In this document: in pieces, positions 12,281-39,137 of the stretch | How the letters are laid out: each line of letters opens with the position of its first letter | How positions within the stretch are numbered: position 1 is the first letter of the stretch | Source of the DNA: an uncultured Psychrosphaera sp. | GTDB lineage: Bacteria; Pseudomonadota; Gammaproteobacteria; Enterobacterales; Alteromonadaceae | DNA length: 64,000 nt | Assembly (NCBI RefSeq): GCF_947500655.1 | Contig: NZ_CANMSK010000008.1 | Location: 19,139-83,138, forward strand | Direction: 5' to 3' | Translations under genes and position numbers: made by a program | Notes under the pieces: model-generated | Database searches by the model: none | Seen by the model: the letters and a program-made list of their open reading frames with translations, nothing else | Told to the model about the DNA's origin: nothing

Positions 12281-12296
12281 TTGACACTTATGTCAA
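12281..12296. promoter_or_regulatory. Candidate operator, TGACAC-type palindrome (TTGACACTTATGTCAA)
   Basis: Lies in the divergent promoter region, 86 nt upstream of the permease start (12195) and ~210 nt upstream of the deaminase-like gene. It is one of four related sites (12281, 12370, 15158, 39120). Confidence 0.55.
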
Positions 12297-12369
12297 TATT
12301 TATCACTAAGTATACAGGTGAATATTATTGCTTTATTGCTACTGGTGAAGTTAAATCATCTATAAAAAC

Positions 12370-12383
12370 TGACACTTGTGATA
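12370..12383. promoter_or_regulatory. Weaker second TGACAC-type site (TGACACTTGTGATA)
   Basis: The left half is perfect and the right half matches 4/6. It is ~125 nt upstream of the ATG at 12505. Confidence 0.3.
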
Positions 12384-12504
12384 ACTTTCTAGCCATCATG
12401 CGTTAGTAGTAAATAAAATAATTAGTTATAAGTACTATATAAGCATAAGCACTAATAAATTGCGTAAATTTAAAGTACTGCTTTATACAATAAAAAGGAT
12501 AAAC

Positions 12505-13968
12505 ATGTTTTCATCATTAAGATCTTTCACTAGCTTGGTACTATTGGTTAGTCCATTAATATTTTGCCAGAGCTTTGTGGTAACTGCTGCAGCAAAAATA
12601 GAAAATAGCCAAACTAATTGGTTTAATGACTTTAAACAGCAAGCATCTGATAAGCAACTTTATAAATTTTTATACAACATGCCTAAAGGTGCCGATTTAC
12701 ATAACCATGCAAGTGGTAGCAACTTTCCACGTTGGTGGTATGAGCTTGCAATCAATAGCGAGCTTAATGGCGGTTACCGTTATTACACAAAAACTAAATT
12801 AACCTTATGCCAAGGTTATGGCCAAAATGCCTTTGGGTATATCTCGCCGACGCTGACTTTTGTAACCATAGCTGAAAATATTTATAAAAAGCTCAGTGCT
12901 TGTGAACAAAAAAATTACACACAACTTTCATCCTTAACACCAAAAGAGATAAAGGCGTGGGAACAAAGCATTTGGTTGGATAAAGACTACGAAGGTCGTG
13001 ACGAGTTTTTTCAAACTCATTGGCAACGGTTAAATGAGCTGGCTAATAATCCGTATATTGCAGCAGAAATGCTTGTGCGAAATATGAAAGCGTTTGGCAA
13101 TGAAGGACTAATTTACCTTGAGAGTCAATTTAATGTGACTGGGTTTATGACACCAAACGGTAAGCCTCAAACTCAAACTGCAGCTTTAAACATTCTTAAG
13201 GAACGTTTGGCTCAAGACGACGCCAAACAAACTGGTGTGGAAGTAAAACTGGTTTATCAACTATTGCGCTTTACTCCTAACGCAGAACAGCAACTAACCG
13301 ACATTTATAAATTTGTTGATCAAAATCGTGACCTATATGTGGGCATTAATATGGTTGGTAGAGAAGATAACGGTAAAGGCCATCCACTACGTTTTTTGTC
13401 TACCTTGCGTGAACTAAGACAACAATATCCTGCCATTGCTCTTACTATTCATGCGGGTGAAGTGGATGAACCAAACTTTCATATTAGAGATACGTTATTA
13501 CTAGGCGCTGATAGAATTGGTCACGGCGTTAATTTATTAGGAGACCCACAAACAACATTATTGATGCGTCATAATCATTATTTAATAGAAGTTAATCTGA
13601 TCAGTAATTTGTTGTTGGAATATGTTGATGACTTTAAAAAGCACCCTTTTCCAGAATTTTTACGCACAGGCATTCCTGTGGCTTTATCAACTGACGACCG
13701 CGGCATGTTCCATTCAAACTTAACCGATGAATTCTTTATCGCAGTTAAGACCTTTAATTTGTCTTGGCAGGAAGTGGTAACACTAAGTAAAAACTCTCTC
13801 GAATATAGTTTTTTAGATCACCCAACAAAAAAAGCAATGCTTGTTAAGTTTGATGAAAACATTAATACATTCACGCAAAACTTTGAACAAAATGGCTCAA
13901 GCAGTTTGCAAAAACCAGCGGTGTTGAATCAATTTATTCGACGTTATTATCCACAATTAACTGATTAG
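12505..13968 (+). CDS. Secreted adenosine/adenine-deaminase-family protein (long, ADGF/CECR1-like form)
   Basis: ATG at 12505 follows AAAAGGA; the longest ORF starts at a TTG at 12460. It has a signal peptide (MFSSLRSFTSLVLLVSPLIFCQSFVVTAAA). Metal/catalytic motifs of the adenosine deaminase superfamily are present (DLHNHASGS, IHAGE, GHGVNL, ALSTDDRGMF). Confidence 0.75.
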   Translation: MFSSLRSFTSLVLLVSPLIFCQSFVVTAAAKIENSQTNWFNDFKQQASDKQLYKFLYNMPKGADLHNHASGSNFPRWWYELAINSELNGGYRYYTKTKLTLCQGYGQNAFGYISPTLTFVTIAENIYKKLSACEQKNYTQLSSLTPKEIKAWEQSIWLDKDYEGRDEFFQTHWQRLNELANNPYIAAEMLVRNMKAFGNEGLIYLESQFNVTGFMTPNGKPQTQTAALNILKERLAQDDAKQTGVEVKLVYQLLRFTPNAEQQLTDIYKFVDQNRDLYVGINMVGREDNGKGHPLRFLSTLRELRQQYPAIALTIHAGEVDEPNFHIRDTLLLGADRIGHGVNLLGDPQTTLLMRHNHYLIEVNLISNLLLEYVDDFKKHPFPEFLRTGIPVALSTDDRGMFHSNLTDEFFIAVKTFNLSWQEVVTLSKNSLEYSFLDHPTKKAMLVKFDENINTFTQNFEQNGSSSLQKPAVLNQFIRRYYPQLTD

Positions 13969-13978
13969 GCTATTTTTT

Positions 13979-14968
13979 ATGAAGAATTTATTTATGCACA
14001 CTTTTTTAATTAATAATTTAAAAAAACTCACCATAATATTCATCAGCTTGATCTTAATAAGCTGTACACAGGCTGACAAATCTTATACGCAAGTTGTTGC
14101 TAATGCCAAGTTAACTGAGGTAGCAAATACCATTAACTTGGAAGACAACAACGCTGCTTTAAAAACAATTTCTGATGTAGATTATGCGCAATGGAGTGAA
14201 GAAGAAAAACAGTCGGCTCTATTATTAACAGCATTAGGCTGTATCGATATTAGTACTAATGATAGCAAGCAATCCACTTCAGTAGATGACTGCAAGGCTT
14301 TACAGCCTTTATCAATTGATTATCCAAATGTGCCATCATCGTTAACATTAGTATTCAATGAATTGCTAGAGCAGAATATTATTCAAGGCTACAATATCAA
14401 GGAGCAAGAACTGGTTACGTCAAAAGAGACTGGTAACAATATTTTCCTTTACGGTCATAGTTCTTTACCGCACGCCAAGCAGTTGATCAGTTTATTGAAC
14501 ATAAATAACATTGATTTTACTTGGCAACTTATTCCTAAAAGTTCGGCGTTTAATATTCGTGATGATTGGCAAGATACTAAGATTGATGAAAAAGAATCCA
14601 GAGTACGAATAGCCAAAGAATACGACATTCGATTAATTTTTGCAGATCAAGCTGAACAGCTTAGCTTTATGCCTTTAATTAATAAATACGCCAAAAAAGA
14701 CACTGACGATGAAGCTGGATTAATCATTAATGCTTGGTGGCAGCCTTTTTATCGCAGTTTTTCTGCGCTAGAGTCCTTTATGCCTGTTAAGAGAATTTCT
14801 TTACAAGCCGATGGTTTTATTGCCTCGACTCTTGTACTTCAACCTGATCTTACAAAAACTCTTGATTTGATTAAAGCTAGTCTGGCAAACATAGAGGTAA
14901 CAATTTCAACTGAAGATGTATGGGTAAACCCAGCATTTTACCGTTATCTTAATGGTGGTTATAAATAG
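13979..14968 (+). CDS. Orphan lipoprotein, no recognisable domain
   Basis: Lipobox LILISC, 10 nt after the stop of the deaminase-like gene (operonic). I recognise no family. Confidence 0.7.
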   Translation: MKNLFMHTFLINNLKKLTIIFISLILISCTQADKSYTQVVANAKLTEVANTINLEDNNAALKTISDVDYAQWSEEEKQSALLLTALGCIDISTNDSKQSTSVDDCKALQPLSIDYPNVPSSLTLVFNELLEQNIIQGYNIKEQELVTSKETGNNIFLYGHSSLPHAKQLISLLNINNIDFTWQLIPKSSAFNIRDDWQDTKIDEKESRVRIAKEYDIRLIFADQAEQLSFMPLINKYAKKDTDDEAGLIINAWWQPFYRSFSALESFMPVKRISLQADGFIASTLVLQPDLTKTLDLIKASLANIEVTISTEDVWVNPAFYRYLNGGYK

Positions 14969-15157
14969 ACTGTAAACCACTATAAAACTGATTTTTATAA
15001 ATCCGCGTTTATAGATTAACTATTCGGCACTAGATTAGTGCAACTGCTCTATTGTAGTGCTGAATTGTTTATTTTTAAAGCCTTTCAACTAAACTCTCAC
15101 ATATTCCAATCTAAAAATTAACCAATATAAACATAAACTTAACTACAAAAATAAGAC

Positions 15158-15173
15158 TTGACACTTGAGTCAA
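15158..15173. promoter_or_regulatory. Candidate operator, TGACAC-type palindrome (TTGACACTTGAGTCAA)
   Basis: Lies 106 nt upstream of the TonB-dependent receptor start at 15279. Confidence 0.5.
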
Positions 15174-15278
15174 CTAAATGGCATTAATTCTGCTTTAATT
15201 ACCCTAATAAAATAATAACTAACTGAAGCTAACCATCGAGTTAGCACTTTCAATAAAACTTTAGGGGAATATTCTACT

Positions 15279-17768
15279 ATGTCATTACGTACATATAAAA
15301 CCAGTTACCTTGCTTCTGCTATTGCGTTAAGCCTTAGTATGTCAGCGAATACTTTCGCGGCAGATGAAGCAGAAGAGCCTACTGATAAGGAAATTGAAAA
15401 AATTGAAGTACGAGGCTCTTTAGGCAGCCTTCCTGGACAAGCCGTTGAATCTGTTTTTGGTTTTGGTAAATCAATCTTAGAAACGCCTCGTTCTGCTTCA
15501 ACTATCAGTCAAGAGCAGATGGAACGTTTTAGCGTAAGTGATATAGATGAATTAGTTGCATTTGCTCCTGGTACATTTACCCAATCATTTTTTGGTGTTG
15601 CGGGCTCGCTAGATGTTCGTGGTACGCCAGGCGAAACTTATTTCCGTGGTGTTAAACGTTTAGATAACCCAGGAAACTATCCAACACCAATTGGTGCGTC
15701 AAGCCGTGTTGATATTGTACGTGGCCCAGCCTCACCTATTTATGGTCCGGCAAAAATAGGTGGTTACTTAAACTTTAATCCTAAATCTGCACGCGCTAGC
15801 GGTGGCCAATATTTAGATGACAACACTGGCGGCTTTTCTTATACAACAGGAAGTTGGAATAAAAATGTCATAACCGCAGAAATCGGTGGACCAGCTGAAA
15901 TTGCAGGAAAAAAAGCAGGTTTCTATATATACGGTGAAGTTGAGAGATCTGATAGCTTTTATGAAAATACAAAAACAGATCAAACTGTATTACAAGCGGC
16001 ATTTAACATTGACGTAACAGATAATCTTCGTTTTGAATTTGGTGGTATGTACCATGATTACGATGGTAATCAAGTTGCAGGTTGGAATCGCTTAACTCAA
16101 GACTTAGTTGATAACGGTACTTATATTACAGGTACAGCTCAGCCACTAGATACTGATGGTGACGGCTATATTTCTCATCAAGAATACAACGCAGCAGGTG
16201 TAGATCAATATATTTGGCAAGTGCCAATGAATGGAACTACTCCAGACCTTATTCCAGATATTATGGCGTTAGAAAATGTTGGAACAACAACATTAGATGC
16301 TAGCCAAGTATTAGTCGCAGAAGATGATGAACTGACGAATACCGTTCAAACATTGTACTTTGATGCTATGTATTACACCGATAACGGTTGGGAAGTTAAA
16401 AACCAATTATTTTATGAAGGATACGAAAATAACAATGAAAATGCCTACGGGTTTTCTCAATATCATGATAGTTGGGTAATAGAAGATAAAATTGTTTTCT
16501 CTACTGAGTTAGAACTTGACGACATGATTGCTCAAGTACAAATTTCGCCATCATTACGTTATGTTGATTTTGAACATGGTGAAGATTGGAAGAATGAATA
16601 TTTTGATCGCCGCGATTTAACAATGGAATCAAGTTCACTTGACCGCCGTTTATTAGCAACCGTAATTGATGATGATTATACAGAATGGTATGAAGGTAAT
16701 TATTTAGATCTTGGTTTTGCTGCTATGGTCGATCTTACTTGGGAATGGGGTCTAAATGTTGTCCTTGGTGCACGTTACGACTCATTTGATATGGAAAGTA
16801 GTACAGACCCAGATAAATTATTATTAGGTAACTACGGTTCTGGTTTTGTTATTATGTCTGACGATGGAAAATACATATTAAATGACTTTGGTGCAGACTC
16901 AGCAAACTATACCGCTGCGGATATAACAGCCCCTGTAGAAGCTGAAGATACGGTTGATGGTGTTTCTTGGAATACCAGTATTTCGTATAAGTTTGATATG
17001 GGTTTAATTCCATATATCACAGCAGCTGAACAATCGACTATTATTGTTGGCCAAGGTGCAGAAATTAAAACAGGTAGTATCTACTCTGGTGGCGTTTTCG
17101 ATAAATCTACATTAATGGAGTTTGGTGTTAAAGGTACATTCCTAGAAGACTCTCTTTACTTTGCTCTTTCAAACTATACTCAAGAACGTACCGATACCAA
17201 AGCACAATCGACTACGCTTAATAATGTAACTGAAACTAAAGGTACTGAATTTGAATTACGTTGGGTCGTGACTGATGACTTAGTTGTATCAGCAGGGTAC
17301 ACCGATGTTAAAGTTCTGAACTTAACAGCAATAGAAGATGGCGGTCAATATGGCTTCTTCGGTGCTGAAGATATGCCATTAGTTGAACCTTCACTTGCTT
17401 ATGGCGGTGTAGTTGGCGGCACAAATCCTACAAGTAATAACCCTGAGGGTCTGAAAGCAGGTATTCCACAAAACATTTACTCTTTCACTGCTAGTTATGA
17501 TTTCCAAAATGGATTTTCAGCTAATGCCAGTGTTATTGATGTAGATTCTACCTATTCTGGTTATTCACAGGCTGTGTTACTTCCATCTTATACTTTAGTA
17601 AATGCCGGTGTGTTATATCAAGCAGATACATGGTCAGCGAGTCTTAACGTTAAAAACTTAACTGATGAGACTTATTACCGTGCAAACTTCCCGGACTTAT
17701 TTGGTAGTGCGGTGGTTTTACCTGAACTTCCACGTAGCGTACAAGCTAAGTTCACTTATAACTTCTAA
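15279..17768 (+). CDS. TonB-dependent outer-membrane receptor
   Basis: Signal peptide, a plug (ETPRSASTISQEQMERF..., DIVRGPASPIYGPAKIGGYLNF) and an 829-aa barrel ending in FTYNF. Confidence 0.9.
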   Translation: MSLRTYKTSYLASAIALSLSMSANTFAADEAEEPTDKEIEKIEVRGSLGSLPGQAVESVFGFGKSILETPRSASTISQEQMERFSVSDIDELVAFAPGTFTQSFFGVAGSLDVRGTPGETYFRGVKRLDNPGNYPTPIGASSRVDIVRGPASPIYGPAKIGGYLNFNPKSARASGGQYLDDNTGGFSYTTGSWNKNVITAEIGGPAEIAGKKAGFYIYGEVERSDSFYENTKTDQTVLQAAFNIDVTDNLRFEFGGMYHDYDGNQVAGWNRLTQDLVDNGTYITGTAQPLDTDGDGYISHQEYNAAGVDQYIWQVPMNGTTPDLIPDIMALENVGTTTLDASQVLVAEDDELTNTVQTLYFDAMYYTDNGWEVKNQLFYEGYENNNENAYGFSQYHDSWVIEDKIVFSTELELDDMIAQVQISPSLRYVDFEHGEDWKNEYFDRRDLTMESSSLDRRLLATVIDDDYTEWYEGNYLDLGFAAMVDLTWEWGLNVVLGARYDSFDMESSTDPDKLLLGNYGSGFVIMSDDGKYILNDFGADSANYTAADITAPVEAEDTVDGVSWNTSISYKFDMGLIPYITAAEQSTIIVGQGAEIKTGSIYSGGVFDKSTLMEFGVKGTFLEDSLYFALSNYTQERTDTKAQSTTLNNVTETKGTEFELRWVVTDDLVVSAGYTDVKVLNLTAIEDGGQYGFFGAEDMPLVEPSLAYGGVVGGTNPTSNNPEGLKAGIPQNIYSFTASYDFQNGFSANASVIDVDSTYSGYSQAVLLPSYTLVNAGVLYQADTWSASLNVKNLTDETYYRANFPDLFGSAVVLPELPRSVQAKFTYNF

Positions 17769-17813
17769 GTTAGAAGTTATGACTTTAAAGAAATAAAGTA
17801 AGAACTAGAATAA

Positions 17814-17847: not shown

Positions 17848-17899
17848 AGCTTTTAATTAACAGTTAGGTAAATCCACAACAAACATATAGAGGAAAATC

Positions 17900-20396: not shown

Positions 20397-20398
20397 CA

Positions 20399-22088: not shown

Positions 22089-23792
22089 ATGGCAACGATT
22101 GATAAACATTCTTATGCACATATGTTTGGTCCAACAGTTGGCGATCGTGTTCGCTTAGCCGACACTGATTTATGGATTGAAGTAGAAAAAGATTTTACTG
22201 AATACGGCGAAGAAGTCACTTTTGGTGGCGGTAAAGTTATTCGAGATGGTATGGGACAAAGCCAAGCGTCATGTTTTGAAACAGTAGATTTGGTCATTAC
22301 CAATGCACTTATTCTTGATCACTGGGGCATAGTAAAAGCTGACGTCGGCATTAAAGATGGCCGCATCGCTATTATTGGTAAAGCTGGTAATCCTGATATT
22401 CAAGATAATATTGATATTGAAATTGGTGCCGGTACTGAGGTTATTGCAGGTGAAGGCCAAATATTAACGGCCGGTGGAATCGATGCGCATATTCATTTTA
22501 TTTGCCCACAACAAATTGAAGAAGCCCAAATGTCAGGTGTCACCACTATGATTGGCGGTGGTACAGGCCCTGCAACAGGAACTAAAGCGACAACATGTAC
22601 ACCAGGACCTTGGAATATTCATAAAATGTTGCAGTCAACTAATGACTTTGCAATGAACTTTGGCTTTTTAGGCAAAGGCAACGTGAGTTTGCCACAAGCT
22701 TTAGAAGAACAAATTGAAGCCGGTGTTTGTGGTTTAAAATTGCATGAAGACTGGGGCACAACGCCAGCGGCTATTGATAACTGCCTATCCGTTGCTGAAC
22801 GATATGATGTTCAAGTTGCGATTCATACAGATACGCTAAATGAATCTGGTTTTTTAGAAGATACATTGGGTGCATTTAAAGGTCGTACTATTCACACTTA
22901 TCACACAGAAGGTGCAGGTGGTGGTCATTCACCTGATATTATTCGCGCTTGTGGTGAGCCTAACGTATTACCTTCATCAACTAATCCAACGCGTCCTTAT
23001 ACGATTAATACCATAGATGAACATTTAGATATGTTGATGGTATGCCATCACCTCAATCCATCTATTCCAGAAGACATTGCTTTTGCTGATTCTCGTATTC
23101 GTAAAGAAAGTATTGCGGCTGAAGATATTATGCATGACTTAGGTGCGATCAGTATGATCTCGTCTGATTCACAAGCCATGGGACGTGTTGGTGAAATGAT
23201 CACCCGTACTTGGCAAACCGCCCACAAAATGAAGCAACAGCGTGGTCCTTTAGCACCTGATACTGAACGCAACGATAACTTCCGCGCTAAGCGTTATATT
23301 GCTAAATACACAATAAATCCGGCGATCAGTCATGGTATTAGCCATGAAGTTGGCTCAATTGAAGTTGGCAAGTTAGCGGATTTAGTATTATGGAAACCCG
23401 CATTTTTTGGTATTAAGCCGTCGATGATCATCAAGTCTGGTTTTATTGCAGCTGCGCCTATGGGGGATGCCAACGCATCTATTCCAACGCCACAGCCTGT
23501 GTATTATCGCCCAATGTTTGGTGCTTTTGGTAGTGCGTCGGCAAAAACGTCCATGACCTTTATGTCGCAAGCGTCTATTGACGCTAATGTGCCAGAGAAA
23601 ATAGGCATGACTCGAATGATTGGGGTTTGTAAAAACACTAGAAATATCGGCAAAGACGATATGATCCATAACAGCTGGCAACCTAAAATAGAGGTGGATG
23701 CACAAACCTATGAAGTAAGAGCCAATGGCGAGTTATTAACTTGTGAGCCTGCGACTTCGCTTCCTCTTTCACAGCTGTATTGCTTATTTTAA
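22089..23792 (+). CDS. ureC: Urease alpha subunit
   Basis: 567 aa with the active-site motifs [22 protein letters not shown] and MVCHHL. Confidence 0.97.
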
Positions 23793-28985: not shown

Positions 28986-29034
28986 AACAGTATCCTTTTC
29001 CTCAAGCAAAATCAGAGCAAATCATTCATTAAAA

Positions 29035-30228
29035 CTATTTATTATTTTGCTGTAACCAAATAGCTAATTGACCACGTTCTTTATCGGTTATTTTAGTTTT
29101 ATTCATAAATGGCATATCTTTAGCGTCAACAACTCGAGCCTGTATGCGTGGCGCCCATTGTTTAATTGAAGCTTCGCCATTAAACACGACACCACCTTGA
29201 GCTACCGTAAAAATGTCGTCGGTATTTTGCTCAGAATGGCATGAGCTACAGCGGGCTTCTATAATAGTTTGCACTTCAGCCATGGTTACTTTTTGCTGTA
29301 ATTGCTCTTTGGTTACCTCCACCTTTTCTGGTGCAATGGCATAGGCTAATGTGATTGTTGCTAATATTGCTCCAATAATAATACTTGGCTTATTTTTACC
29401 AAAATGACGAAGTACAAAATATTGTCTTACCGCCGCACCTATTAAAACAAGTCCCATTAATACAGCCCAACCAGCATTGTGATTAAATGTCATTGGGTAA
29501 TGGTTAGAGATCATAATGAAGATCACAGGCAAGGTAATATAAGTATTATGAGTTGAGCGTAATTTGGCGTTCAAACCATATTTAGAATCTGGTTTTGTTC
29601 CGTCTTCTACCGCTTTAACCAAAGCGCGCTGTGCTGGCATAATGCCAAAGAACACATTCCCAGCCATGATAGTTCCCATCACTGCGCCCATGTGCATATA
29701 AGCACCACGAGCACTAAATACTTGCATCAAGCTGTAAGATAACCAAGTGCCTAATGCCAGTAAAATAATGGCTAAAATTAAACTGTGATCTTTAAGTTTA
29801 GTTCTAACTAAAACTTCATACGTTCCAACACCAACAACAATTGAACCTAAGCCATATAAAATAGCTTGAAGTTGAGTAAGCTCGGCAACACTAGAGTCAA
29901 TAAGGTAAGTTTCAGCCCCTACATAAAACATGAGCGATAATAAGAAGAAGCCAGTGATCCATGTGGTGTACGCTTCCCACTTAAACCAATGCAACATAGT
30001 TGGCATTTTTGGTGGCGCAAGTTTGTATTTGGCTACCTCATAAAAACCACCGCCGTGAATAGCCCACAGATCACCAGAAATACCTTTGTCGGCTTTTTCC
30101 TGTGGCGGTGTTTCTAAGTGATTATCTAGCCACACAAAATAAAATGATGCGCCAATCCAAGCAATACCTACCACAACGTGGGCAAAGCGAAGGACTAAAT
30201 TAAGCCAATCTGTAATATACGGATCCAT
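29035..30228 (-). CDS. puuD: Membrane-bound urate hydroxylase PuuD (polytopic domain + C-terminal cytochrome c)
   Basis: The N-terminal membrane domain (MDPYITDWLNLVLRFAHVVVGIAWIGASFYFVWLDNHL) plus a C-terminal CSSCH haem-c motif matches the PuuD architecture. Confidence 0.8.
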   Translation of the reverse strand: MDPYITDWLNLVLRFAHVVVGIAWIGASFYFVWLDNHLETPPQEKADKGISGDLWAIHGGGFYEVAKYKLAPPKMPTMLHWFKWEAYTTWITGFFLLSLMFYVGAETYLIDSSVAELTQLQAILYGLGSIVVGVGTYEVLVRTKLKDHSLILAIILLALGTWLSYSLMQVFSARGAYMHMGAVMGTIMAGNVFFGIMPAQRALVKAVEDGTKPDSKYGLNAKLRSTHNTYITLPVIFIMISNHYPMTFNHNAGWAVLMGLVLIGAAVRQYFVLRHFGKNKPSIIIGAILATITLAYAIAPEKVEVTKEQLQQKVTMAEVQTIIEARCSSCHSEQNTDDIFTVAQGGVVFNGEASIKQWAPRIQARVVDAKDMPFMNKTKITDKERGQLAIWLQQNNK

Positions 30229-30282
30229 AATTTTTCTCGATTCTTATTCTTTAATAAAAAATTTATAATTTACGTGTTTTAT

Positions 30283-31569
30283 TTAAACTTTTTCGCCCAT
30301 TATATGGGTAGCAATTACATGACGTTCATCACCTAACATACTCAGAATAAATAGTTTTTCAGACAAGTTAGTACAATGCGTCATACGTCTTGCCATTAAA
30401 GGCGTCGCCTTGTAATCAAGCACAACAAAGTCAGCTTCTGCACCTTTGGTAAAGTTACCAATTGTCCCTTCTAAATCCAGAGCAATAGCACCGCCAAGTG
30501 TGGCTAAGTAAAAAGACTGGAAAGGACTTAATTTATCGTTACGTAATTGTTGTGTTTTATATGCATCATTCATAGTACTTAACATAGAAAACGTAGTACC
30601 CGCGCCGATATCAGAGCCCATTCCTACATTAATGTCGAATTGCTTAGCCTGTGTAAGATTATACAAACCGCTGCCTAAAAACAGGTTTGAGCTTGGACAA
30701 AAAGCAATAGCCGAATTGGTTTCACCTAAGCGCTGACATTCTGAGTCATGCAAATGAACACCATGAGCAAAAACACTACGTCGGCCTAACAATTTACTCT
30801 TGTCGTACACATCTAAGTAACCATCAGATTCTGGAAATAACTCTTTAACCCAAGCTATTTCATTCTTGTTTTCACTTAAATGAGTATGTAAGTACACACT
30901 AGGGTTTTCAGCTAGTAATTGACCTGCTTTTTTTAATTGTTCAGGAGAAGAGGTTGGTGCAAAACGTGGTGTAATGGCGTACTGTAAACGGTCGACTTTA
31001 TGCCATTTTTCAATTAATTGTTTTGACTCTTGATAGCCTAACTCTGCCGTGTCCGACAAATCTTCTGGGCAATTACGATCCATTAATACCTTGCCACAGA
31101 TCATTCTTAATTTTCGCTGTTGTGCTGCAGTAAAAAATGCATCGACCGAGGCTTTATGCACAGTGCCAAATACTAGTGCCGTTGTAGTTCCTGCATCTAG
31201 CAACTGCTCCAAAAAGAACTCAGCTACGCCTTTAGCGTGTTCAAAGTCACTAAATTGCTTTTCAAATGGGAAGGTATAATTCTCTAACCATTCCAATAGT
31301 TGTTCACCATAAGAGGCGATCATTTCTGTTTGTGGATAATGCACATGCGTGTCAATAAAGCCGGGCATGATCAAACCATTTTCATAGTGAGTTATTTCAA
31401 CACTATCATCAATTGTTGGCAGCAATTCAGCGGCACTTCCAACTTGTTCAACTAGTCCGTCTTTTAAAATTAACAAACCGTCTTCGATATATTGATAGCT
31501 GTCTTCTAAGGCGACTTTTGCAGGGTCTGCCAAAAAATGTAACAACTCACCACGGTATACTTTTAACAT
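30283..31569 (-). CDS. guaD: Guanine deaminase
   Basis: Amidohydrolase with PGFIDTHVHYPQTEMIASYGEQLLEWLENYTFPFE and HLSEN motifs. Confidence 0.9.
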   Translation of the reverse strand: MLKVYRGELLHFLADPAKVALEDSYQYIEDGLLILKDGLVEQVGSAAELLPTIDDSVEITHYENGLIMPGFIDTHVHYPQTEMIASYGEQLLEWLENYTFPFEKQFSDFEHAKGVAEFFLEQLLDAGTTTALVFGTVHKASVDAFFTAAQQRKLRMICGKVLMDRNCPEDLSDTAELGYQESKQLIEKWHKVDRLQYAITPRFAPTSSPEQLKKAGQLLAENPSVYLHTHLSENKNEIAWVKELFPESDGYLDVYDKSKLLGRRSVFAHGVHLHDSECQRLGETNSAIAFCPSSNLFLGSGLYNLTQAKQFDINVGMGSDIGAGTTFSMLSTMNDAYKTQQLRNDKLSPFQSFYLATLGGAIALDLEGTIGNFTKGAEADFVVLDYKATPLMARRMTHCTNLSEKLFILSMLGDERHVIATHIMGEKV

Positions 31570-31598
31570 TATTTTACCTTTGTAAACTTTCTTAAATT

Positions 31599-31619
31599 CA
31601 ACTCTTTTAAAAAGAGTTG
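31599..31619 (-). other. 21-nt perfect hairpin/palindrome between allA and guaD
   Basis: caactctttt-a-aaaagagttg, with 10-bp arms, inside the 55-nt intercistronic gap. Confidence 0.6.
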
Positions 31620-31624
31620 TTTGA

Positions 31625-32122
31625 CTAGCTCTGTGCGATAACTAATGAACCATCAAGTTCCAATACATCGCAGTTGTCACCTTCGCCACCTCTATCAATT
31701 ACCAAGAAGTCGCTTTCGCTGCTCAGTGCTAAACAGAAGTGATGCCACGTGCCTTTGTGATAATTCACACCTTGGCTAGAGTCCGCTAAAAATACTTCAA
31801 TTTTATTAACATCAAACTCCCCCGCAGGGGCAACCACTACTAAATAAGGATTTTGTCCCATAGGAATAAATGCTTGGCTACCTAAAGGATGGCGTTCCAT
31901 CATTTTTATCGCAATAGGCTGTTCTAATGGTGTTGAACGGAAAATATTAACTAAAGTACGACCATTATTATCATCCACATCAACCTTGGCTAAGTCATGA
32001 TAACGCTGAGTAAAACCATCGTTAATAGTGAAATTATTAGCTTGTTCATTCGCTTCAATTACATCACCAAACGCTTTAAACGCGTCTTTGGTTAATGGCT
32101 TAGGTATAATTTCTTTTAACAT
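31625..32122 (-). CDS. allA: Ureidoglycolate lyase
   Basis: Colinear with E. coli AllA (FKAFGDVIE...ERHPLGSQAFIPM...GVNYHKGTWHH...IDRGGEGDNCDV). The ATG is at 32122; the ORF-track TTG is at 32134. Confidence 0.9.
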   Translation of the reverse strand: MLKEIIPKPLTKDAFKAFGDVIEANEQANNFTINDGFTQRYHDLAKVDVDDNNGRTLVNIFRSTPLEQPIAIKMMERHPLGSQAFIPMGQNPYLVVVAPAGEFDVNKIEVFLADSSQGVNYHKGTWHHFCLALSSESDFLVIDRGGEGDNCDVLELDGSLVIAQS

Positions 32123-32158
32123 GATCTTTTCCAATTCATTTACATATACTAAACAGCA

Positions 32159-32500
32159 CTAGCTACCACGGTACGTTGAATAACCATACGCAGTTAACAA
32201 CAATGGAATATGGTAATGCGCACCACCAGCATCTATCTCAAACACGATATCAACATAAGGATAAAATCCTTTTTCGTCGTTCGCGTTAAAGTAAACCGCA
32301 GTCGCAAAATGCATACGATAAACACCAGCGGGTAAAACCTCACCGTCAGCTAATAAATTTGGTAAACGGCCATCTTGATTGGTGACACCGCCATTGATCT
32401 CCTGCCAATTATTACCATCTTGGGCAAATAAAGTAATTGGCACATTTTGCGCGGGTAAGCCGCGTGTAACATCTAATATGTGTGTAGTAATTTGACTCAT
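32159..32500 (-). CDS. uraH: 5-hydroxyisourate hydrolase (transthyretin-like)
   Basis: 113 aa, with HILDVTRGLPA at the N-terminus and the diagnostic C-terminal YSTYRGS. Confidence 0.93.
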   Translation of the reverse strand: MSQITTHILDVTRGLPAQNVPITLFAQDGNNWQEINGGVTNQDGRLPNLLADGEVLPAGVYRMHFATAVYFNANDEKGFYPYVDIVFEIDAGGAHYHIPLLLTAYGYSTYRGS

Positions 32501-32550
32501 GTTATTCCCTGTTCTTATCTTATTTCTATCTCTTAACTTTCAGCTTTAAA

Positions 32551-32592
32551 GCTTAAGACTTATGACTTATGGCTTATGGCTTACAGCTTATG
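32551..32592. repeat. Heptanucleotide tandem repeat (RCTTAYR)x6
   Basis: gcttaag acttatg acttatg gcttatg gcttaca gcttatg. The last unit contains the TAA stop (32588-32590, minus strand) of uraD. Confidence 0.9.
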
Positions 32593-33091
32593 ACAATGCT
32601 TTTGTGATGCGCAGTTGAAAGATCTTTCTTTGCTCTTCTGCTGCATTAATTAATTCTTGTGCTCTGTTATTTGGTAATCGAGCTTGCAGTAAGTCAGACA
32701 TTTGCTGTGCGCTTTTACCTGTGGCACACACTATAAAAATAAAACCGAATTTGGCTTCGTAATCTGTATTACCTTGTGCAAGCTGCTCAAGCACTGTGTC
32801 ATCAGCCTCTTTAACTAAACCTTGTTCGTTACCAGCTAATTCTTTGGTGTTGGCATATTTAGCTCGTAAGCTATTTACATCACCAATTTTTGGATGACCT
32901 TCAAAGGCTTCCAAGTAATCAGACTCAGCAAGTCCTTGCCATGCTTTATCAGCTTGTTGCACCAAAGCTTCTTCTCTAGCAAAAGGACGCGCTTTAACCA
33001 TGCTATTTACCCAAGTTGTAGCTGTACAACATTGCATAAACATGTGCGTTGCATCCTCAACATTAAGCTTGTTTAATTGTGCTAGGTTCAT
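32588..33091 (-). CDS. uraD: OHCU decarboxylase
   Basis: 167 aa with motifs AFEGHPKIGD and FGFIFIVCATGKSA. It has a 4-nt ATGA overlap with alc. Confidence 0.88.
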   Translation of the reverse strand: MNLAQLNKLNVEDATHMFMQCCTATTWVNSMVKARPFAREEALVQQADKAWQGLAESDYLEAFEGHPKIGDVNSLRAKYANTKELAGNEQGLVKEADDTVLEQLAQGNTDYEAKFGFIFIVCATGKSAQQMSDLLQARLPNNRAQELINAAEEQRKIFQLRITKALS

Positions 33092-34155
33092 GCGTTTTTG
33101 CCACTAGTTTTACCAAAGGCGCGCAATCTAGATATGCCACCATCTGGGAAAATACTTAAACGAATATGAGTAAATTCTTGCGTATTAGCAGGAATAATTT
33201 CATTAATAAATAAGTGTTCACGGTGCGCATATAATTTAGTTTTGCTGATAATAGGCTGCCATTTATCGGCTTGTGCATCATTAGTAAAGTCGTCACTGTC
33301 CGAAACCATACCTTCCAATAAAAACGTGTCTGGGAAATTACCTTTAAAGTGACAAGTATCAACTATCACTTTTTCTACACTGCCTTTGGCTGCTAACTTA
33401 ACGATTGACCAATCCGGACCTGGATCACGACGACGTTTTGTTTCCCAACCGTCACCCATATCTTTACCGCGTCCCGGCATGATCAAATTGTTTTTATCAC
33501 TAAAAAACATATCAGATACTAACAAGGCTTTTGCGCCATTTTTGATATACGCTAAGTCGATTAACTCGCCGTCAATAAAGTCATTCCAATTTACGTCTGC
33601 TTCACCGTAGACACGAAAACGAGCGATACCGCCATCTGGAAACATATTTAATCTAACGTGAGTCCAAGAAATATCATTATGTATTTCAAAAACATTCTGG
33701 CTATGTGCATCCACAGAAACTTCGGTTAAAACAGTGTGCCAAACTGTACTTTTATTCGGCTGAACATCACTCACACAAGCTTCTACTGAAACGGTTTGTG
33801 GCGCGTTACCACGGAAGTAGTTAGTGTCAATATCAAACCCTTTGATCACACCTTGAATACCAAGACGAATAATACACCAGTCAAATTCACGACCATTATC
33901 ACGGCCATAACTACGACGAGATTCCCAACCGTCCATCCATTTTCCACGGTCGGTAAATTTACCGTCAATAAAAATTCCGCGTCCTTCTTTTAGCAAGTTT
34001 TCCATGCCAGCAAAAAAGTCATCACTGCAAGATAAGGTTTCACCACCAACTCGTTCACTGGCTAAATCTACACAATGTGTTTTTAATTTACGTTCCAGCT
34101 CGAGTGCATCACCGCTTAGTTTGTTTTGTTCTTGAGTATTTATATCTGCCATCAT
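33088..34155 (-). CDS. alc: Allantoicase
   Basis: Two internal allantoicase repeats (DDFFA...GWESRR; GDGWETKRRR) and a jelly-roll repeat pattern (FPDGGIARFRVYG / FPDGGISRLRAFG). Confidence 0.9.
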   Translation of the reverse strand: MMADINTQEQNKLSGDALELERKLKTHCVDLASERVGGETLSCSDDFFAGMENLLKEGRGIFIDGKFTDRGKWMDGWESRRSYGRDNGREFDWCIIRLGIQGVIKGFDIDTNYFRGNAPQTVSVEACVSDVQPNKSTVWHTVLTEVSVDAHSQNVFEIHNDISWTHVRLNMFPDGGIARFRVYGEADVNWNDFIDGELIDLAYIKNGAKALLVSDMFFSDKNNLIMPGRGKDMGDGWETKRRRDPGPDWSIVKLAAKGSVEKVIVDTCHFKGNFPDTFLLEGMVSDSDDFTNDAQADKWQPIISKTKLYAHREHLFINEIIPANTQEFTHIRLSIFPDGGISRLRAFGKTSGKNA

Positions 34156-34246
34156 AGCTTGGTCTTCCTAGATCAAATTTGTTTACGTTTTTACTTAGCT
34201 TTTATTTAGTTCTTTACTTAGATAGCCGTTGAGCTATTTATTTAGC

Positions 34247-35227
34247 TTACTCGCTTTCATTTTCAAGTAGCTCGTCGCTTGATTCAGACGTTTGCATTGC
34301 AAGAAGTTGTTTTACTTCTTGCCAAGCGACGCCTTTGCTTTTTTTACTAGCTTGTTCCGTAGAAGAAACATTATCAGATACCGATAGCAGTGACTGATAA
34401 GACTCTATAATTTCGCCTGCTACACTCACGGCTACTTCCATTGGTATTTTGCCTACTACTTGCTCTAAGCCAATTGGACAATTCATGCGTTCAACAAGAG
34501 ATGGTTTTACATCACGATGTTTATAACGCTGCTGGAAACGGCGCCATTTTGTGTCTGATGCTATTAAGCCTAAGTAGTGAAAATCTTCACGCTTTAGAAT
34601 CGCCAGGCTAATTTCAAAGTCCAGCTGGTGATTGTGTGTCATCACTACATTTAATGTATTGCTTGGCATCGAAGCCACTTCGCTCGCGGGATCGTCCGTT
34701 AACAACTTAGTCACATTTGGATACTGTTCACAGTTAACAGGAAATTGCGACTCTCTATTATCAACCCATGTAATATGACAAGGTAAACTGGCTAAAATAG
34801 GCACTAGCGCTTGCGCTACATGTCCTGCACCAAAAACGGCAATATGTACTTTACTGGCTGCAAAATACTCAAATAATAAACTGGCATTACCGCCACAACA
34901 TTGGCCTAACTGACTGCCTAATTGAAAATGTTCAATTACCTGACAATCTTGCTTTTGCTGTAATAGCTCTTGGGCTTTTTGTATCGCTTTATATTCAAGG
35001 TGACCGCCACCTATGGTGTCGAAACTTTGATTTTGACTGACGACCATTTTGGTGCCACTGTTTCTTGGTGTTGAACCGCTAACACCAATAATTGTGATCA
35101 AAACAAAACCTTTACCTTGGCTATTTAAATTAAAGCTGGCTTGATCCCATTTTAATTTATGCATCTCTCCACCAGTAAATGATTTTGGTGGCTCAAAACT
35201 TTCATCAAAATTATTCATATTTGCCAC
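34247..35227 (-). CDS. xdhC: Xanthine dehydrogenase accessory protein XdhC
   Basis: XdhC/CoxI motifs (GSTPRNSGTKMVV; a Rossmann-like VFGAGHVAQAL). It lies directly downstream of xdhB. Confidence 0.85.
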   Translation of the reverse strand: MANMNNFDESFEPPKSFTGGEMHKLKWDQASFNLNSQGKGFVLITIIGVSGSTPRNSGTKMVVSQNQSFDTIGGGHLEYKAIQKAQELLQQKQDCQVIEHFQLGSQLGQCCGGNASLLFEYFAASKVHIAVFGAGHVAQALVPILASLPCHITWVDNRESQFPVNCEQYPNVTKLLTDDPASEVASMPSNTLNVVMTHNHQLDFEISLAILKREDFHYLGLIASDTKWRRFQQRYKHRDVKPSLVERMNCPIGLEQVVGKIPMEVAVSVAGEIIESYQSLLSVSDNVSSTEQASKKSKGVAWQEVKQLLAMQTSESSDELLENESE

Positions 35228-35228
35228 C

Positions 35229-37583
35229 CTACTCTTGCTCAGCTTTTAAAGCTTCAACGGCAAATAGTACACGTTCTGGTGTTGCTGGCGTATCAAGCGC
35301 TGGGCTTACTTTATGGTCAACCACACTAGCAATAGCATCTTTAAGTGCCGACCACACTGACATGCCTAACATAAACGGCGGCTCGCCTACGGCTTTTGAG
35401 TTATAAATAGTGTGTTCACGATTTGGCGCATCTGGTAATAACGCGACTCTAAAGTCTTCTGGCGCATCGTTAATTGCTGGAATCTTATAAGTGGCTGGAT
35501 TATTAGAAAGTAATCGGCCTTGCTCATTCCAAACTAATTCTTCAGTGGTAAGCCACCCCATACCTTGCACAAAAGCACCTTCTATTTGGCCAAGATCTAT
35601 CGCAGGATTAATTGAGTGACCAACATCTTGTAAGATGTCAGTACGTAATGTTTTATATTCACCCGTTAGTGTATCTATTATAACTTCAGATACGGATGCG
35701 CCCGTTGCATAGTAAAAAAACGGACGACCTTTGCCAGTTGCTCGGTCAAAGTGGATTTTAGGGGTTTTATAAAATCCAGTAGATGATAACGATACGCGTG
35801 CCATGTAAGCAATTTGTGCAAATTCTGCAAAACTAAATACTTGCTCGCCAACCACAACATTACTGTTTTCAAAACGAACTTGCTCTTGGCTCACTTGGTA
35901 ATTTTCACAAGCAAAATCGATTAGTCTTTGTTTAATGATTTTAGCCGCGGCTTCCGCCGCTTTACCATTTAAGTCAGTACCAGAAGATGCTGCGGTTGGT
36001 GATGAGTTGGGAACTTTGTCGGTACGCGCTGACGAACTTGCTACCGTATCAACATCAACCTGAAACTCTTCCGCCACTATTTGAGCAACTTTAGTATTTA
36101 AACCCTGACCCATTTCTGTGCCGCCATGACTTAAATGAATGGTGCCGTCGGTATAAACATGCACCAAAGCACCAGCCTGATTTAAATGCTGTGCGGTAAA
36201 TGAAATACCAAACTTAACCGGCGTTAATGCTATGCCTTTTTTTAGTATGCTATTTTCTTGGTTGAATTTGTTAATGGCTGTACGACGAGCCTGATAATCT
36301 GATGTTTGCTCTAAAGTATTAATGATCTCCGGTAAATTATTATGCTCTACCGTTTGATGATAATGAGTTTCGTCACGGCCTTGCTCACCGTACAAATTCA
36401 CTTTTCTGATCTCTAATGGATCTTTACCTAAATGGCGTGCAATATCATCCATCACCATTTCAATGGTCATCATGCCTTGCGGGCCACCAAAACCACGGTA
36501 AGCGGTATGAGAAACTGTATTTAATTTACAACGATTTCCCGTTACCCTAGCTTCATTTAAAAAGTACGCATTATCTGAATGGAACATAGCTCTATCAACA
36601 ATAGCGTCGGATAAATCTGGTGAATAACCACAGTTGCCGTTTACTTGAATATTAATCCCTTGGATTTGACCTTGCTCATCAAAACCAACGGTATAATTAT
36701 TTTCAAATGGATGACGTTTACCCGTCATGATCATGTCATCCATGCGTCCTAATTTAAATTTAACTGGCCGCTTGGTTTCATTTGCCAGTAACGCTGCAAT
36801 ACATGCCCAAGGCGCAGCTTGAGTTTCTTTACCACCAAAACCACCGCCCATGCGGCGCATATCTACCAACACCTTATTTAGCGGAATCGCTAATACTTCA
36901 GCCACTAGTTTTTGCACTTCACTTGGATGTTGTGATGAAGAATAAATATTCATACCGCCATCTTCCGTTGGCTCAGCAGTAGATACTTGCCCCTCAAGAT
37001 ACATATGCTCTTGTCCACCAACTATAATCTCACCAGATAATTGATGTGGCGCTTTGGCAATAGCCGAGTCTGAATCACCGCGCTTCATGGTAGCTGGAGG
37101 ACGTACAAAATTTTGTTTGGCTAATGCATCTTTAACGGTTAATACCGCTTCAAGTTCTTGGTATTCTATTTTTGCTAATTTTACCGCTTTGCGTGCTAAA
37201 TCATAACTTGTTGCGGCAACTGCAAAAATGGGCTGGCCAATGTATTCAACTTTACCGATGGCCAATACAGGATCGCCAGGAAATACAGGGCCAATATCGG
37301 TATGTCCAGGTACGTCGTCCACTGTAATAACTTTTACCACACCTTCGGCAGCTTTAACGGCAGATAAATCCATAGAAATAATATTGGCGTGAGCTTGGGT
37401 AGATTGCCCAACAGCTGCATGCAATTCACCACGTAATGATGGACGGTCATCTACGTATATAGCTTCACCAGCAACTTGTTTGTCGGCACTTTCATGTTTT
37501 TTGGAACGGCCTACACCGCCTAGCCCAATATTAGATTGTGCTTTGCTTGCTGATGAAGAGCTAACATTTATTAAATTACGCAT
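35229..37583 (-). CDS. xdhB: Xanthine dehydrogenase molybdopterin-binding large subunit
   Basis: 784 aa with motifs GGGFGGKETQ, AYRGFGGPQG and HGGTEMGQGLNTK. Confidence 0.93.
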   Translation of the reverse strand: MRNLINVSSSSASKAQSNIGLGGVGRSKKHESADKQVAGEAIYVDDRPSLRGELHAAVGQSTQAHANIISMDLSAVKAAEGVVKVITVDDVPGHTDIGPVFPGDPVLAIGKVEYIGQPIFAVAATSYDLARKAVKLAKIEYQELEAVLTVKDALAKQNFVRPPATMKRGDSDSAIAKAPHQLSGEIIVGGQEHMYLEGQVSTAEPTEDGGMNIYSSSQHPSEVQKLVAEVLAIPLNKVLVDMRRMGGGFGGKETQAAPWACIAALLANETKRPVKFKLGRMDDMIMTGKRHPFENNYTVGFDEQGQIQGINIQVNGNCGYSPDLSDAIVDRAMFHSDNAYFLNEARVTGNRCKLNTVSHTAYRGFGGPQGMMTIEMVMDDIARHLGKDPLEIRKVNLYGEQGRDETHYHQTVEHNNLPEIINTLEQTSDYQARRTAINKFNQENSILKKGIALTPVKFGISFTAQHLNQAGALVHVYTDGTIHLSHGGTEMGQGLNTKVAQIVAEEFQVDVDTVASSSARTDKVPNSSPTAASSGTDLNGKAAEAAAKIIKQRLIDFACENYQVSQEQVRFENSNVVVGEQVFSFAEFAQIAYMARVSLSSTGFYKTPKIHFDRATGKGRPFFYYATGASVSEVIIDTLTGEYKTLRTDILQDVGHSINPAIDLGQIEGAFVQGMGWLTTEELVWNEQGRLLSNNPATYKIPAINDAPEDFRVALLPDAPNREHTIYNSKAVGEPPFMLGMSVWSALKDAIASVVDHKVSPALDTPATPERVLFAVEALKAEQE

Positions 37584-39045
37584 AGTTCATCACCCGTGTT
37601 TCTATTGTTCGGTTTTGCATCTCTAAGTAACACTTTTCAATTAAGTTTTGCGCAACCTTCATGCGATATTTATCTGATGCTCTTACATCTGACATTGGTT
37701 GAAAATCAGTTGCCAATGCCAATTTAGCTTGAGCTACCGACTCCTTGTCTAAACTTTTACCTTGTAATACTTGTTCAGTTGCCGACGCTCGTTTTGGAAT
37801 ACCTGCCATTCCGCCAAAGGCGAAACGAACATTGGTTATTTTTGTTTTATCTGAGTCATCTTTTTGTTCAATAAAGAAAGCCGCTAGTACTGCAGAGATA
37901 TCATCATCAATACGCTTAGATATTTTATATAGCTTAAGTGTTTGGCCTGCGGTCGGTTTTGGTATTTGGATAGACTTAATAAACTCAGAAGGTTTAAGCA
38001 CTGTTTTTTTGTAATCTACAAAGTAGTCTTCAACTAAAATAGTACGCTCTTCACCATTTAAATGCAGTGTCATACTAGCGCCAAGTGCGATTAACGCCGG
38101 TGGCATATCACCAATTGGTGAAGCATTACCGATATTACCGCCTAAGGTTCCAGTATTACGTACTTGTTTTGAGCCAATGCGCTCAATCATGTCACCCAGT
38201 TCAGGGTAATAATGATGCAAAGTGTCGATAAATTTACTGTAAGGCAAAGCTGAACCAATAATAATGTCTGACTCAGTTTCCGTCATTGTGGTGAGTTCTT
38301 CTACATTGCCCACGTACACTAGTTTATCTATAACGGCTAAATTTTGAGTAACTGAAAGGGCTAAGTCTGTGCCACCAGCAACCAGTTTTGAGTCTGGCTC
38401 ATTGGTTAGTTCATAAGCTAATTCGTCTATGTTTTTAGGTGCTACATATTGATGATTATTACCAGATAGAACAGGCTTAGGTAATTTTTGCAGTTCTATA
38501 AGTTTGCTGATTGTTTGCTGATAATGCTGAGCAAAGGAGTCTTGTTCTGTATGTTCACTTGATGTAATAGCCGCTTCTATAATTGAACGATAACCTGTAC
38601 AGCGGCATAAGTTGCCTGCCAATGCTTCAAGTACTTCCGCACGGTTTGGTGTTTGGTTATGCTTGTGCAAAGAAAAAGACGACATAACAAAACCCGGCGT
38701 ACAAAAACCACATTGTGAACCGTGATTATCAACAATAGTTTGCTGAGCGTGATGTAACTTAGCGCCGTCTTTTAAATCTTCAACTGTGATCAACTGTTTA
38801 CCATGCAAGCTACCAACAAAGGTAATGCATGAGTTAATAGATTTATAATTAAGCTGCTTTTCTTCAGCATCTAATTCAGCCAAAACTACAGTACAGGCAC
38901 CACAATCACCGGATGCACAACCTTCTTTAGTACCTGATTTAAATTGAATTTCACGCAGGTATTGTAGAACCGTTAAATTAGGATCGATGTTCTGTATTGT
39001 CACATCGTCATTGTTTAATAAAAAACGAACTGTACTGGTTGTCAT
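37576..39045 (-). CDS. xdhA: Xanthine dehydrogenase small subunit ([2Fe-2S] + FAD)
   Basis: Contains CASGDCGACTV and CGFCTPG clusters and an FAD domain (VAGGTDLAL). The start is set at ATG 39045 (MTTSTVRF...). The 28-codon upstream extension in the ORF track is implausible. Confidence 0.9.
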   Translation of the reverse strand: MTTSTVRFLLNNDDVTIQNIDPNLTVLQYLREIQFKSGTKEGCASGDCGACTVVLAELDAEEKQLNYKSINSCITFVGSLHGKQLITVEDLKDGAKLHHAQQTIVDNHGSQCGFCTPGFVMSSFSLHKHNQTPNRAEVLEALAGNLCRCTGYRSIIEAAITSSEHTEQDSFAQHYQQTISKLIELQKLPKPVLSGNNHQYVAPKNIDELAYELTNEPDSKLVAGGTDLALSVTQNLAVIDKLVYVGNVEELTTMTETESDIIIGSALPYSKFIDTLHHYYPELGDMIERIGSKQVRNTGTLGGNIGNASPIGDMPPALIALGASMTLHLNGEERTILVEDYFVDYKKTVLKPSEFIKSIQIPKPTAGQTLKLYKISKRIDDDISAVLAAFFIEQKDDSDKTKITNVRFAFGGMAGIPKRASATEQVLQGKSLDKESVAQAKLALATDFQPMSDVRASDKYRMKVAQNLIEKCYLEMQNRTIETRVMNYA

Positions 39046-39119
39046 AATGGTTCCATAGCATGCACTGGTAAAATAAATATGCACAATTTCTGATAGGTTA
39101 AATATATTAAAAAATAAAA

Positions 39120-39137
39120 GCTGACACAAGTGTCAGC
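39120..39137. promoter_or_regulatory. Candidate operator, TGACAC-type 18-bp palindrome (GCTGACACAAGTGTCAGC)
   Basis: 8-bp perfect arms with a 2-nt spacer, 75 nt upstream of the xdhA start, at the head of the 11-gene minus-strand operon. Confidence 0.6.

Follow-up and report, generated by a model that had tools for sequence, protein, structure and literature searches.

A family of RutR-like palindromes at the purine-catabolism units of a Psychrosphaera genome and the TetR-family protein that is its likely reader

A 64-kb stretch of the genome of an uncultured Psychrosphaera sp. (contig NZ_CANMSK010000008.1, positions 19,139 to 83,138; 64,000 nucleotides, hereafter the window) carries a cluster of purine-catabolism genes, and a short palindrome recurs between its transcription units. 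The locus raises the question of whether these palindromes are the operators of a dedicated purine regulon and, if so, which protein reads them. A preliminary description had placed four sites at 12281, 12370, 15158 and 39120, the last with 8-bp perfect arms, and all four, arms included, are present. Scans of this genome for the box covered the window, and genes and coordinates are given as positions of the whole stretch.

12281-12296, no strand: operator 1, TTGACACTTATGTCAA, in the intergenic region between the divergent permease and deaminase units
12369-12384, no strand: operator 1b (weak), CTGACACTTGTGATAA, two mismatches, inner 14 nt TGACACTTGTGATA at 12370-12383
15158-15173, no strand: operator 2, TTGACACTTGAGTCAA, 5 bp 5' of the sigma-54 promoter of the receptor operon
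39120-39137, no strand: operator 3, GCTGACACAAGTGTCAGC, 8-bp perfect arms, core on the xdhA (minus) strand CTGACACTTGTGTCAG

The 16-bp box has the consensus yTGACACTTGTGTCAr and is referred to below as the CAC box. Scanning with TGACACNNGTGTCA at up to one mismatch (box TGACACnnGTGTCA) gave three matches against 0.06 expected, a number reached in none of 100 shuffles. At up to two mismatches there were four matches against 1.8 expected, the 12370 site being the only addition, and no further box of this quality was found in the window, which bears out the earlier impression that other intergenic regions lack the site. All four sites are intergenic, at the heads of what appear to be purine units. 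Operator 1 is separated from the permease ATG (12195) by 86 nt and from that of the deaminase (12506) by 210 nt; operator 1b, 88 bp from it centre to centre, is about 122 nt 5' of the deaminase ATG. Operator 2 is 106 nt from the ATG of the TonB receptor (15279), and operator 3 (39120) is 75 nt from that of xdhA, whose start is the ATG at 39045 and not the TTG at 39129 that heads the mechanical open reading frame. The spacing of 75-210 nt claimed beforehand is thus what we measured, and the box does have the frame of the RutR box with AC in place of the inner CA, positions ±3 and ±2 being swapped. The palindrome family is almost certainly real and functional. Judged from sequence evidence, we consider it likely that its members are the operators of a purine-specific RutR-family TetR protein, the product of the gene at 26054-26680.

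Conservation of the xdhA site was determined at 15 orthologous loci. Ten come from metagenomes, with XdhA 69-85% identical; among the other five are Colwellia psychrerythraea 34H, Thalassotalea sp. ND16A and a Psychrosphaera metagenome-assembled genome. The 14-mer TGACACTTGTGTCA is invariant in 15 of 15 xdhA promoters (XdhA 69-92% identical), 85-91 nt 5' of the ATG; the window copy stands at 90 nt. In alignment A1 the 14 box columns are invariant and the flanking DNA diverges, with the exception of a second conserved block that suggests a promoter.

39129-39124, minus strand: TTGTGT, putative -35 element of xdhA, overlapped by the centre of operator 3
39101-39106, minus strand: TATATT, putative -10 element of xdhA, 17 nt 3' of TTGTGT, in the conserved column block of A1

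At this block the orthologues have TGCTATATT or TGCTATAGT, an extended -10, and Psychrosphaera has TATATT. Because the conserved -10 block lies 17 nt downstream, the TTGTGT at the box centre falls at the expected -35 position. Both elements were assigned from alignment A1 only; a simple sigma-70 scan returned no convincing promoter at operators 1 or 3.

The head of the receptor operon has a different architecture, which the preliminary description did not contain.

15179-15193, plus strand: sigma-54-type promoter TGGCATTAATTCTGC (-24 GG, -12 GC), the only TGGCA-N7-TGC match in the window
15027-15041, no strand: NtrC-like box GCACTAGATTAGTGC, in tandem with the next
15046-15060, no strand: NtrC-like box GCTCTATTGTAGTGC, in tandem with the previous one

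The two NtrC-like boxes, against 0.43 expected in the window, lie about 120-150 nt 5' of the promoter, so that the receptor head has both the canonical -24/-12 elements and the upstream activator sites of a predicted sigma-54/NtrC-type promoter. No sigma-54 promoter was seen at the permease, deaminase or xdhA heads of the window. The receptor orthologues of 64 genomes have a conserved TGGCA-N7-TGC on their 5' side; among 61 loci examined it was kept in 53. GCAC-N7-GTGC is enriched about 20-fold 129-180 nt 5' of the sigma-54 promoters in related loci. A RutR box of the CCA type, [TC]TGACCAnnTGGACA[AG], ends exactly 5 bp before the sigma-54 promoter in about 40 Alteromonadaceae; in the window and in Psychrosphaera saromensis (L001) the CAC box TTGACACTTGAGTCAA occupies the identical slot. 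Halieaceae retain the sigma-54 promoter and have no box. Pseudoalteromonas sp. MMG010 (L085) has the gene layout of the window, yet no CAC box; its receptor promoter has the sigma-54 element without any box, and its xdhA promoter (13156-13190) is itself sigma-54-type, TGGCATAATATCTGC, and is preceded by a CCA box whose end lies 3 bp away.

The CAC motif was not found in the receptor, permease or xdhA promoters of other genera. We rejected the reading of this absence as non-conservation, since CCA-type boxes occupy the same slots. In CCA-box genomes, CCA-type boxes also precede xdhA, at 85-89 nt from its ATG, as well as pbuX and the permease gene, those of the sister-clade permease genes lying 54-140 nt upstream. 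Across all the DNA fetched, CAC boxes with up to one mismatch number 21 in 0.39 Mb of CAC-clade loci (53 per Mb), all of them intergenic at purine or nucleoside genes, and 1 in 1.3 Mb of other genera (0.8 per Mb). Similar palindromes are not scattered through the unrelated DNA covered. Operator 2 is identical in P. saromensis, where operator 1 is kept as CTGACATTTATGTCAA and operator 1b as CTGACACTTATGATAA; TTGACACTATTGACAA occurs in the SulP/permease intergenic region of two further loci (L068, L082). The expectation that orthologous promoters keep the site held for xdhA (15/15) and for the permease/deaminase and receptor sites in P. saromensis; it did not hold within 260 nt of the ATG for the permease genes of Colwellia, Thalassotalea and Shewanella.

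We then considered which protein recognizes the box. Family searches identified a single transcription factor gene within the purine cluster.

26054-26680, minus strand: RutR-like TetR gene (208 aa, GTG start), last gene of the xdh operon, the proposed binder

Its product is 37% identical to E. coli RutR over the full length, shares the TetR_N and YcdC-type C-terminal domains, and aligns to the RutR structure 3LOC over residues 11-205 (E=1.7e-38). PF00440 and PF08362 together, the architecture of the RutR/YcdC subfamily of TetR proteins, were found in 120 of the 120 orthologues listed (78-92% identical). It scores 183 bits against the NCBIfam RutR model TIGR03613 (cutoff 368) and 161 against NF011584 (cutoff 230). 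In the RutR pocket W77 and W167 are kept, Leu74 is replaced by Ile and Leu78 by Asn. A candidate assignment as the RutR equivalog, a uracil sensor, was rejected on both cutoffs and on these pocket residues. The gene travels with the motif: it accompanies the xdh operon wherever the CAC box is found, follows glcB at the operon end in Shewanella sp. UCD-KL12 and Thalassotalea sp. ND16A, keeps its place at the operon end in metagenome loci too, and lies directly 3' of puuD in S. psychrophila (L084). Colwellia, Cognaticolwellia, Thalassotalea and some Shewanella have orthologues about 80% identical. No exact-sequence match was found for the window protein, whether begun with V or with M, or for P0029, one of two copies (P0029, P0034; 82-84% identical to the window protein) on one chromosome of Cognaticolwellia beringensis.

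Box type and regulator type vary together. The recognition helix of the window protein reads IPRANIHYYF, and all CAC-clade regulators have I(P/A)RANIHYYF. In CCA-box genomes the RutR-like TetR is encoded divergently from xdhA, is about 40% identical to the window protein and has the helix LPKTNVLYYF, close to the VSKTNLLYYF of E. coli RutR. The changes in the CAC clade correspond to RutR Lys51, Thr52 and Leu55 (K to R, T to A, L to H). Lys51 and Leu55 of RutR contact bases, and positions 51, 52, 53 and 56 have been proposed as specificity determinants (PMC2952853). This co-variation supports the 26054-26680 protein as the binder. The assignment, already made in the preliminary description, has indirect support from four sequence-level features: it is the sole regulator of the cluster, has RutR/YcdC architecture, travels with the motif and has a distinct recognition helix.

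The window also holds a second gene of this family, near boxes of the other type.

56392-57033, plus strand: second RutR-family paralogue, 40-41% identical to the 26054-26680 protein

This gene lies beside a deoD/deoB/udk/nupC/deoC/tdk/upp/deoA/cdd nucleoside cluster. RutR-type boxes TTGACCAnnTGGTCAA occur at 42803-42818, 46366-46381 and 52472-52487, at a nuclease-like gene, the divergent deoB/udk pair and cdd-deoA. Within the window the two families do not mix: CAC boxes are at purine units only and CCA boxes in the nucleoside cluster only. The CCA boxes and the second paralogue look like a separate pyrimidine/nucleoside regulon, in which the paralogue probably serves the boxes at 42803, 46366 and 52472. 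These boxes also adjoin a gene for a 1075-aa outer-membrane beta-barrel protein.

How would the purine-linked TetR act? A dimer would bind each 16-bp CAC box. Because the box centre overlaps the -35 region of xdhA, the bound protein would block RNA polymerase there and repress the 11-gene operon, its own gene included, by negative autoregulation; no CAC box was found in the glcB-tetR gap. In the permease/deaminase region the two boxes would serve the two units. The receptor operon would need two conditions, nitrogen limitation for activation and release of the repressor, so that TetR would veto its expression unless purines are present. RutR protects about 30 bp (PMC2952853), and a dimer on the 16-bp receptor box would on that measure reach the -24 element. 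The protein would leave the DNA on binding a purine-pathway metabolite, by analogy with uracil and RutR. RutR Leu78 sets uracil specificity (PMC4325133); the purine-linked TetRs of both clades all keep W77 and W167 and have Asn at Leu78, which argues for a shared effector other than uracil, and the nucleoside-cluster paralogue has Asp there. We infer that the protein binds, that it represses and does not activate, where the promoters lie and what ligand releases it; a repressor mechanism with a purine effector is plausible.

Several observations weigh against this picture. The 12370 site is at chance level by its sequence, so that its support comes solely from its position and its conservation in P. 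saromensis. Conservation of operators 1, 1b and 2 depends mainly on that one close relative, in which the central intergenic region around operators 1 and 1b is well conserved as a whole. In Colwellia, Thalassotalea and Shewanella, the 260 nt before the ATG of the permease orthologue contain no box. The half-site TTGACA is the sigma-70 -35 consensus, and part of the box conservation could therefore reflect promoter function. The helix-to-box code is not simple, since a Cellvibrionaceae regulator (L036) reads K-A-N-V-H yet has CCA-type boxes. RutR itself activates some targets, so repression of the CAC-box units is not given.

Could the palindromes be something other than operators? The one at 39120 might be the intrinsic terminator of the co-directional upstream gene (39341-40036, minus strand): on the minus strand AAGCTGACACTTGTGTCAGCTT is followed by TTATTTTTTA, and a scan scores a 9-pair stem with a T-run, a feature absent from the preliminary description. 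That gene, however, already has its own terminator-like hairpin (39283-39256), the 14-mer is invariant in sequence at 15 loci without compensatory changes while its flanks vary, and in three loci (L068, L072, L077) the neighbour upstream of the box is divergent, leaving nothing to terminate. These facts led us to reject termination as the primary function of operator 3, sequence and not structure being conserved; operators 1 and 2, moreover, repeat the sequence at promoters without a T-run. We therefore regard the terminator explanation as improbable, although the palindrome may have a secondary terminator role in Psychrosphaera. It is highly improbable that the sites are chance matches or plain sigma-70 -35 elements with no dedicated factor. 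The resemblance of TTGACA to the -35 consensus, the AT-rich genome and the chance-level 12370 site speak for it, but no shuffle out of 100 gave three matches, both half-sites and the central TT are invariant across the 15 loci, and the receptor promoter is sigma-54-type, so that a -35 element would have no role there.

If the palindromes are operators, as we favour, they might still belong to another protein or work in another direction. The second RutR paralogue or an unlinked factor could bind them, with the operon-end TetR regulating something else: the outer frame TTGAC...GTCAA is common to the CCA boxes, which makes cross-binding conceivable, and RegPrecise treats xdh sites as RutR sites and has rutR2 among the target genes. 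The partition of the boxes, with CCA boxes alone next to the second paralogue, the finding of the CAC box solely where a RANIH-type regulator is found, and the lack of a second transcription factor gene in the purine cluster make a different binder unlikely. We likewise see little likelihood that the proposed TetR binds but acts as an activator or anti-activator, as RutR does at carAB. RutR stimulates carP1 from a distal site (PMC4325133), and the distance to the sigma-54 promoter, strictly 5 bp throughout some 40 species, could reflect a required protein-protein or DNA-geometry contact and not simple occlusion; on the other side, a box overlapping -35 at xdhA and one abutting -24 at the receptor are in typical repressor positions, a RutR-sized footprint of about 30 bp would cover -24 (PMC2952853), and TetR-family proteins are mostly repressors.

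With the 26054-26680 protein taken as the reader of the CAC boxes, the presence of two paralogues and two box families in one window suggests a further idea, which we raise tentatively and judge to have a little less than an even chance of being right. The half-site swap from CA to AC, together with the three helix changes, would insulate the two paralogues from each other, the operators having been re-tuned to an incoming regulator. A Psychrosphaera lineage with a Colwellia-type xdh-tetR operon may have re-tuned its resident, vertically inherited promoters, those of the TonB receptor-NUP and permease/deaminase units, keeping the 5-bp sigma-54 architecture. If true, the locus would offer a natural case in which the co-evolution of operator and regulator and the insulation of paralogues can be traced, on a nitrogen-AND-purine logic gate.

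The closest known system is E. coli RutR with its RUT box TTGACCAnnTGGTCAA. Both boxes are 16-bp palindromes of the same symmetry with identical outer positions ±8 to ±4 (TTGAC/GTCAA), and the two regulators share the two pocket tryptophans and a role, predicted for the window protein, in control of nucleobase catabolism. They differ in the inner half-site, where each of the four window sites has CAC/GTG for CCA/TGG, in the helix (R-A-N-I-H for K-T-N-L-L), in the pocket substitutions described above, and in their targets, which in the window are predicted to be purine genes and not rut or carAB. E. coli RutR, besides pyrimidine genes, touches the gcl-allB purine-degradation operon (PMC4325133). 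The uncharacterised xdh-linked TetRs of Alteromonas and Paraglaciecola (L019-L051) resemble the window system in their regulon (xdhA, permease, pbuX, TonB receptor-NUP), in box positions (about 85-89 nt 5' of the xdhA start codon; 5 bp ahead of the sigma-54 promoter), and in the Asn at Leu78; they differ in being about 40% identical and divergent from xdhA, with a K-T-N-V-L helix and CCA boxes.

By description only, the XdhR proteins of Streptomyces coelicolor (TetR) and Cupriavidus necator (LysR) are comparable as dedicated xanthine dehydrogenase regulators. To our knowledge, neither is a RutR/YcdC-type protein. As cited in PMC7057948, the S. coelicolor XdhR is a TetR-family protein reported to be a (p)ppGpp target and not to bind hypoxanthine, and the C. 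necator protein is LysR-type and xanthine-induced. In Leyn et al. 2016 (PMC5343134), the RegPrecise RutR regulons include xdhABC (22 genomes, 5 taxonomic groups), guaD, pucL, pucM, allA, allC, COG3748 (PuuD family), pbuT and tsx, as well as a 'rutR2' gene in 3 genomes; taxon-specific substitutions in RutR motifs are noted, and C. psychrerythraea 34H, which carries a CAC box at xdhA, is in the genome set. Since purine genes are already listed there, RutR-family control of purine catabolism is not new. The sites are assigned there to one RutR orthologous group; in the text available, a purine paralogue with its own box is not set apart from the pyrimidine/nucleoside RutR of the same genome, and neither the TonB-receptor/NUP targets nor the sigma-54 context are listed. 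In the literature searched, we found no purine-specific RutR paralogue that had been studied by experiment. Our additions are the separation of two paralogue-specific box families in one genome, the co-variation of helix and box, and the sigma-54 context.

The CAC-box regulon does not overturn current understanding. With it, a purine-scavenging regulon can be annotated with confidence in marine Alteromonadales (Psychrosphaera, Colwellia, Thalassotalea and some Shewanella), comprising the xdh/ureide pathway, the AzgA-type permease, the secreted deaminase and the TonB receptor-NUP-pbuX-urease unit. An uncharacterised TetR gains a defined candidate operator, which would be useful for purine biosensors, and a paralogue pair whose boxes differ at two positions per half-site is convenient for study of the TetR-family recognition code. 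The receptor promoter points to combined NtrC/sigma-54 and repressor control of an uptake module widespread in marine Gammaproteobacteria.

The genes of the cluster are as follows.

10756-12195, minus strand: NCS2 (AzgA-type) purine permease, by family search
12506-13968, plus strand: secreted adenosine-deaminase-like protein, by family search
12506-14968, plus strand: this deaminase with a 329-aa protein of unknown function, a pair kept in L001, L017, L006 and L085
15279-25693, plus strand: TonB receptor, PF06516 'NUP' protein, pbuX and ureDABCEFG, a putative single unit
15279-17768, plus strand: TonB-dependent receptor, by family search, 94% identical to the P. saromensis receptor
26793-39045, minus strand: xdhA-xdhB-xdhC-alc-uraD-hiuH-ugl-guaD-puuD-glcB operon, then tetR, by family searches

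The family searches upheld the gene identities given earlier. An uncultured Psychrosphaera sp. has a protein 100% identical to the permease, and internal gaps in the receptor-to-ureG unit are at most 131 nt. In the xdh operon, alc encodes allantoicase, uraD OHCU decarboxylase, hiuH HIU hydrolase, ugl ureidoglycolate lyase, guaD guanine deaminase, puuD a PuuD-type urate oxidase and glcB malate synthase G; the gene order is repeated in Shewanella, Colwellia and Thalassotalea loci. The xdhA operon, the permease and the receptor-pbuX unit thus each have a box, and the regulator gene is linked to them, as expected of a RutR-family purine regulon.

Paired CAC boxes were also seen 5' of a class-V aminotransferase gene in Thalassotalea (L083, 21184 and 21250) and S. 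psychrophila (13407 and 13484), in the latter next to the Tsx nucleoside channel gene (tsx). As predicted sites, they extend the regulon in these two genomes, and the aminotransferase behind them is possibly PucG-like. A conserved leader some 250 nt long (such as ...AACACAGCCTCTTTC...CAGGTCA...) is common to the permease orthologues of L082, L083 and L084 (about 9740-10000); it has no Rfam match and no proximal CAC box, and could be another regulatory element.

The NUP gene (PF06516, the 'purine nucleoside permease' family) follows the TonB receptor gene in Alteromonadaceae, Halieaceae, Cellvibrionaceae and Pseudoalteromonas (L001-L060, L085), nearly always beside purine genes, and the pair is probably an outer-membrane purine or nucleoside uptake module. 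The xdh operon of the window is without the Amidohydro_1 gene (about 455 aa, allantoinase-type) that follows xdhC in all relatives examined (L065, L077, L079, L080) and precedes allantoicase in L077, L079 and L080 and uraD in L065; in the window, xdhC and allantoicase are separated by 92 nt (34155-34247). Allantoin hydrolysis is therefore encoded elsewhere or lost. An Rfam match to 5_ureB_sRNA (107 bits, 22239-22524, minus strand), antisense inside ureC, is most likely a by-product of the conserved urease coding sequence and not a genuine sRNA. A 63-aa open reading frame after ureG (25753-25943, plus strand) combines a His-rich stretch (HPDHS...H..H) with a segment of signal or membrane type, and its product may be a nickel-related accessory protein.

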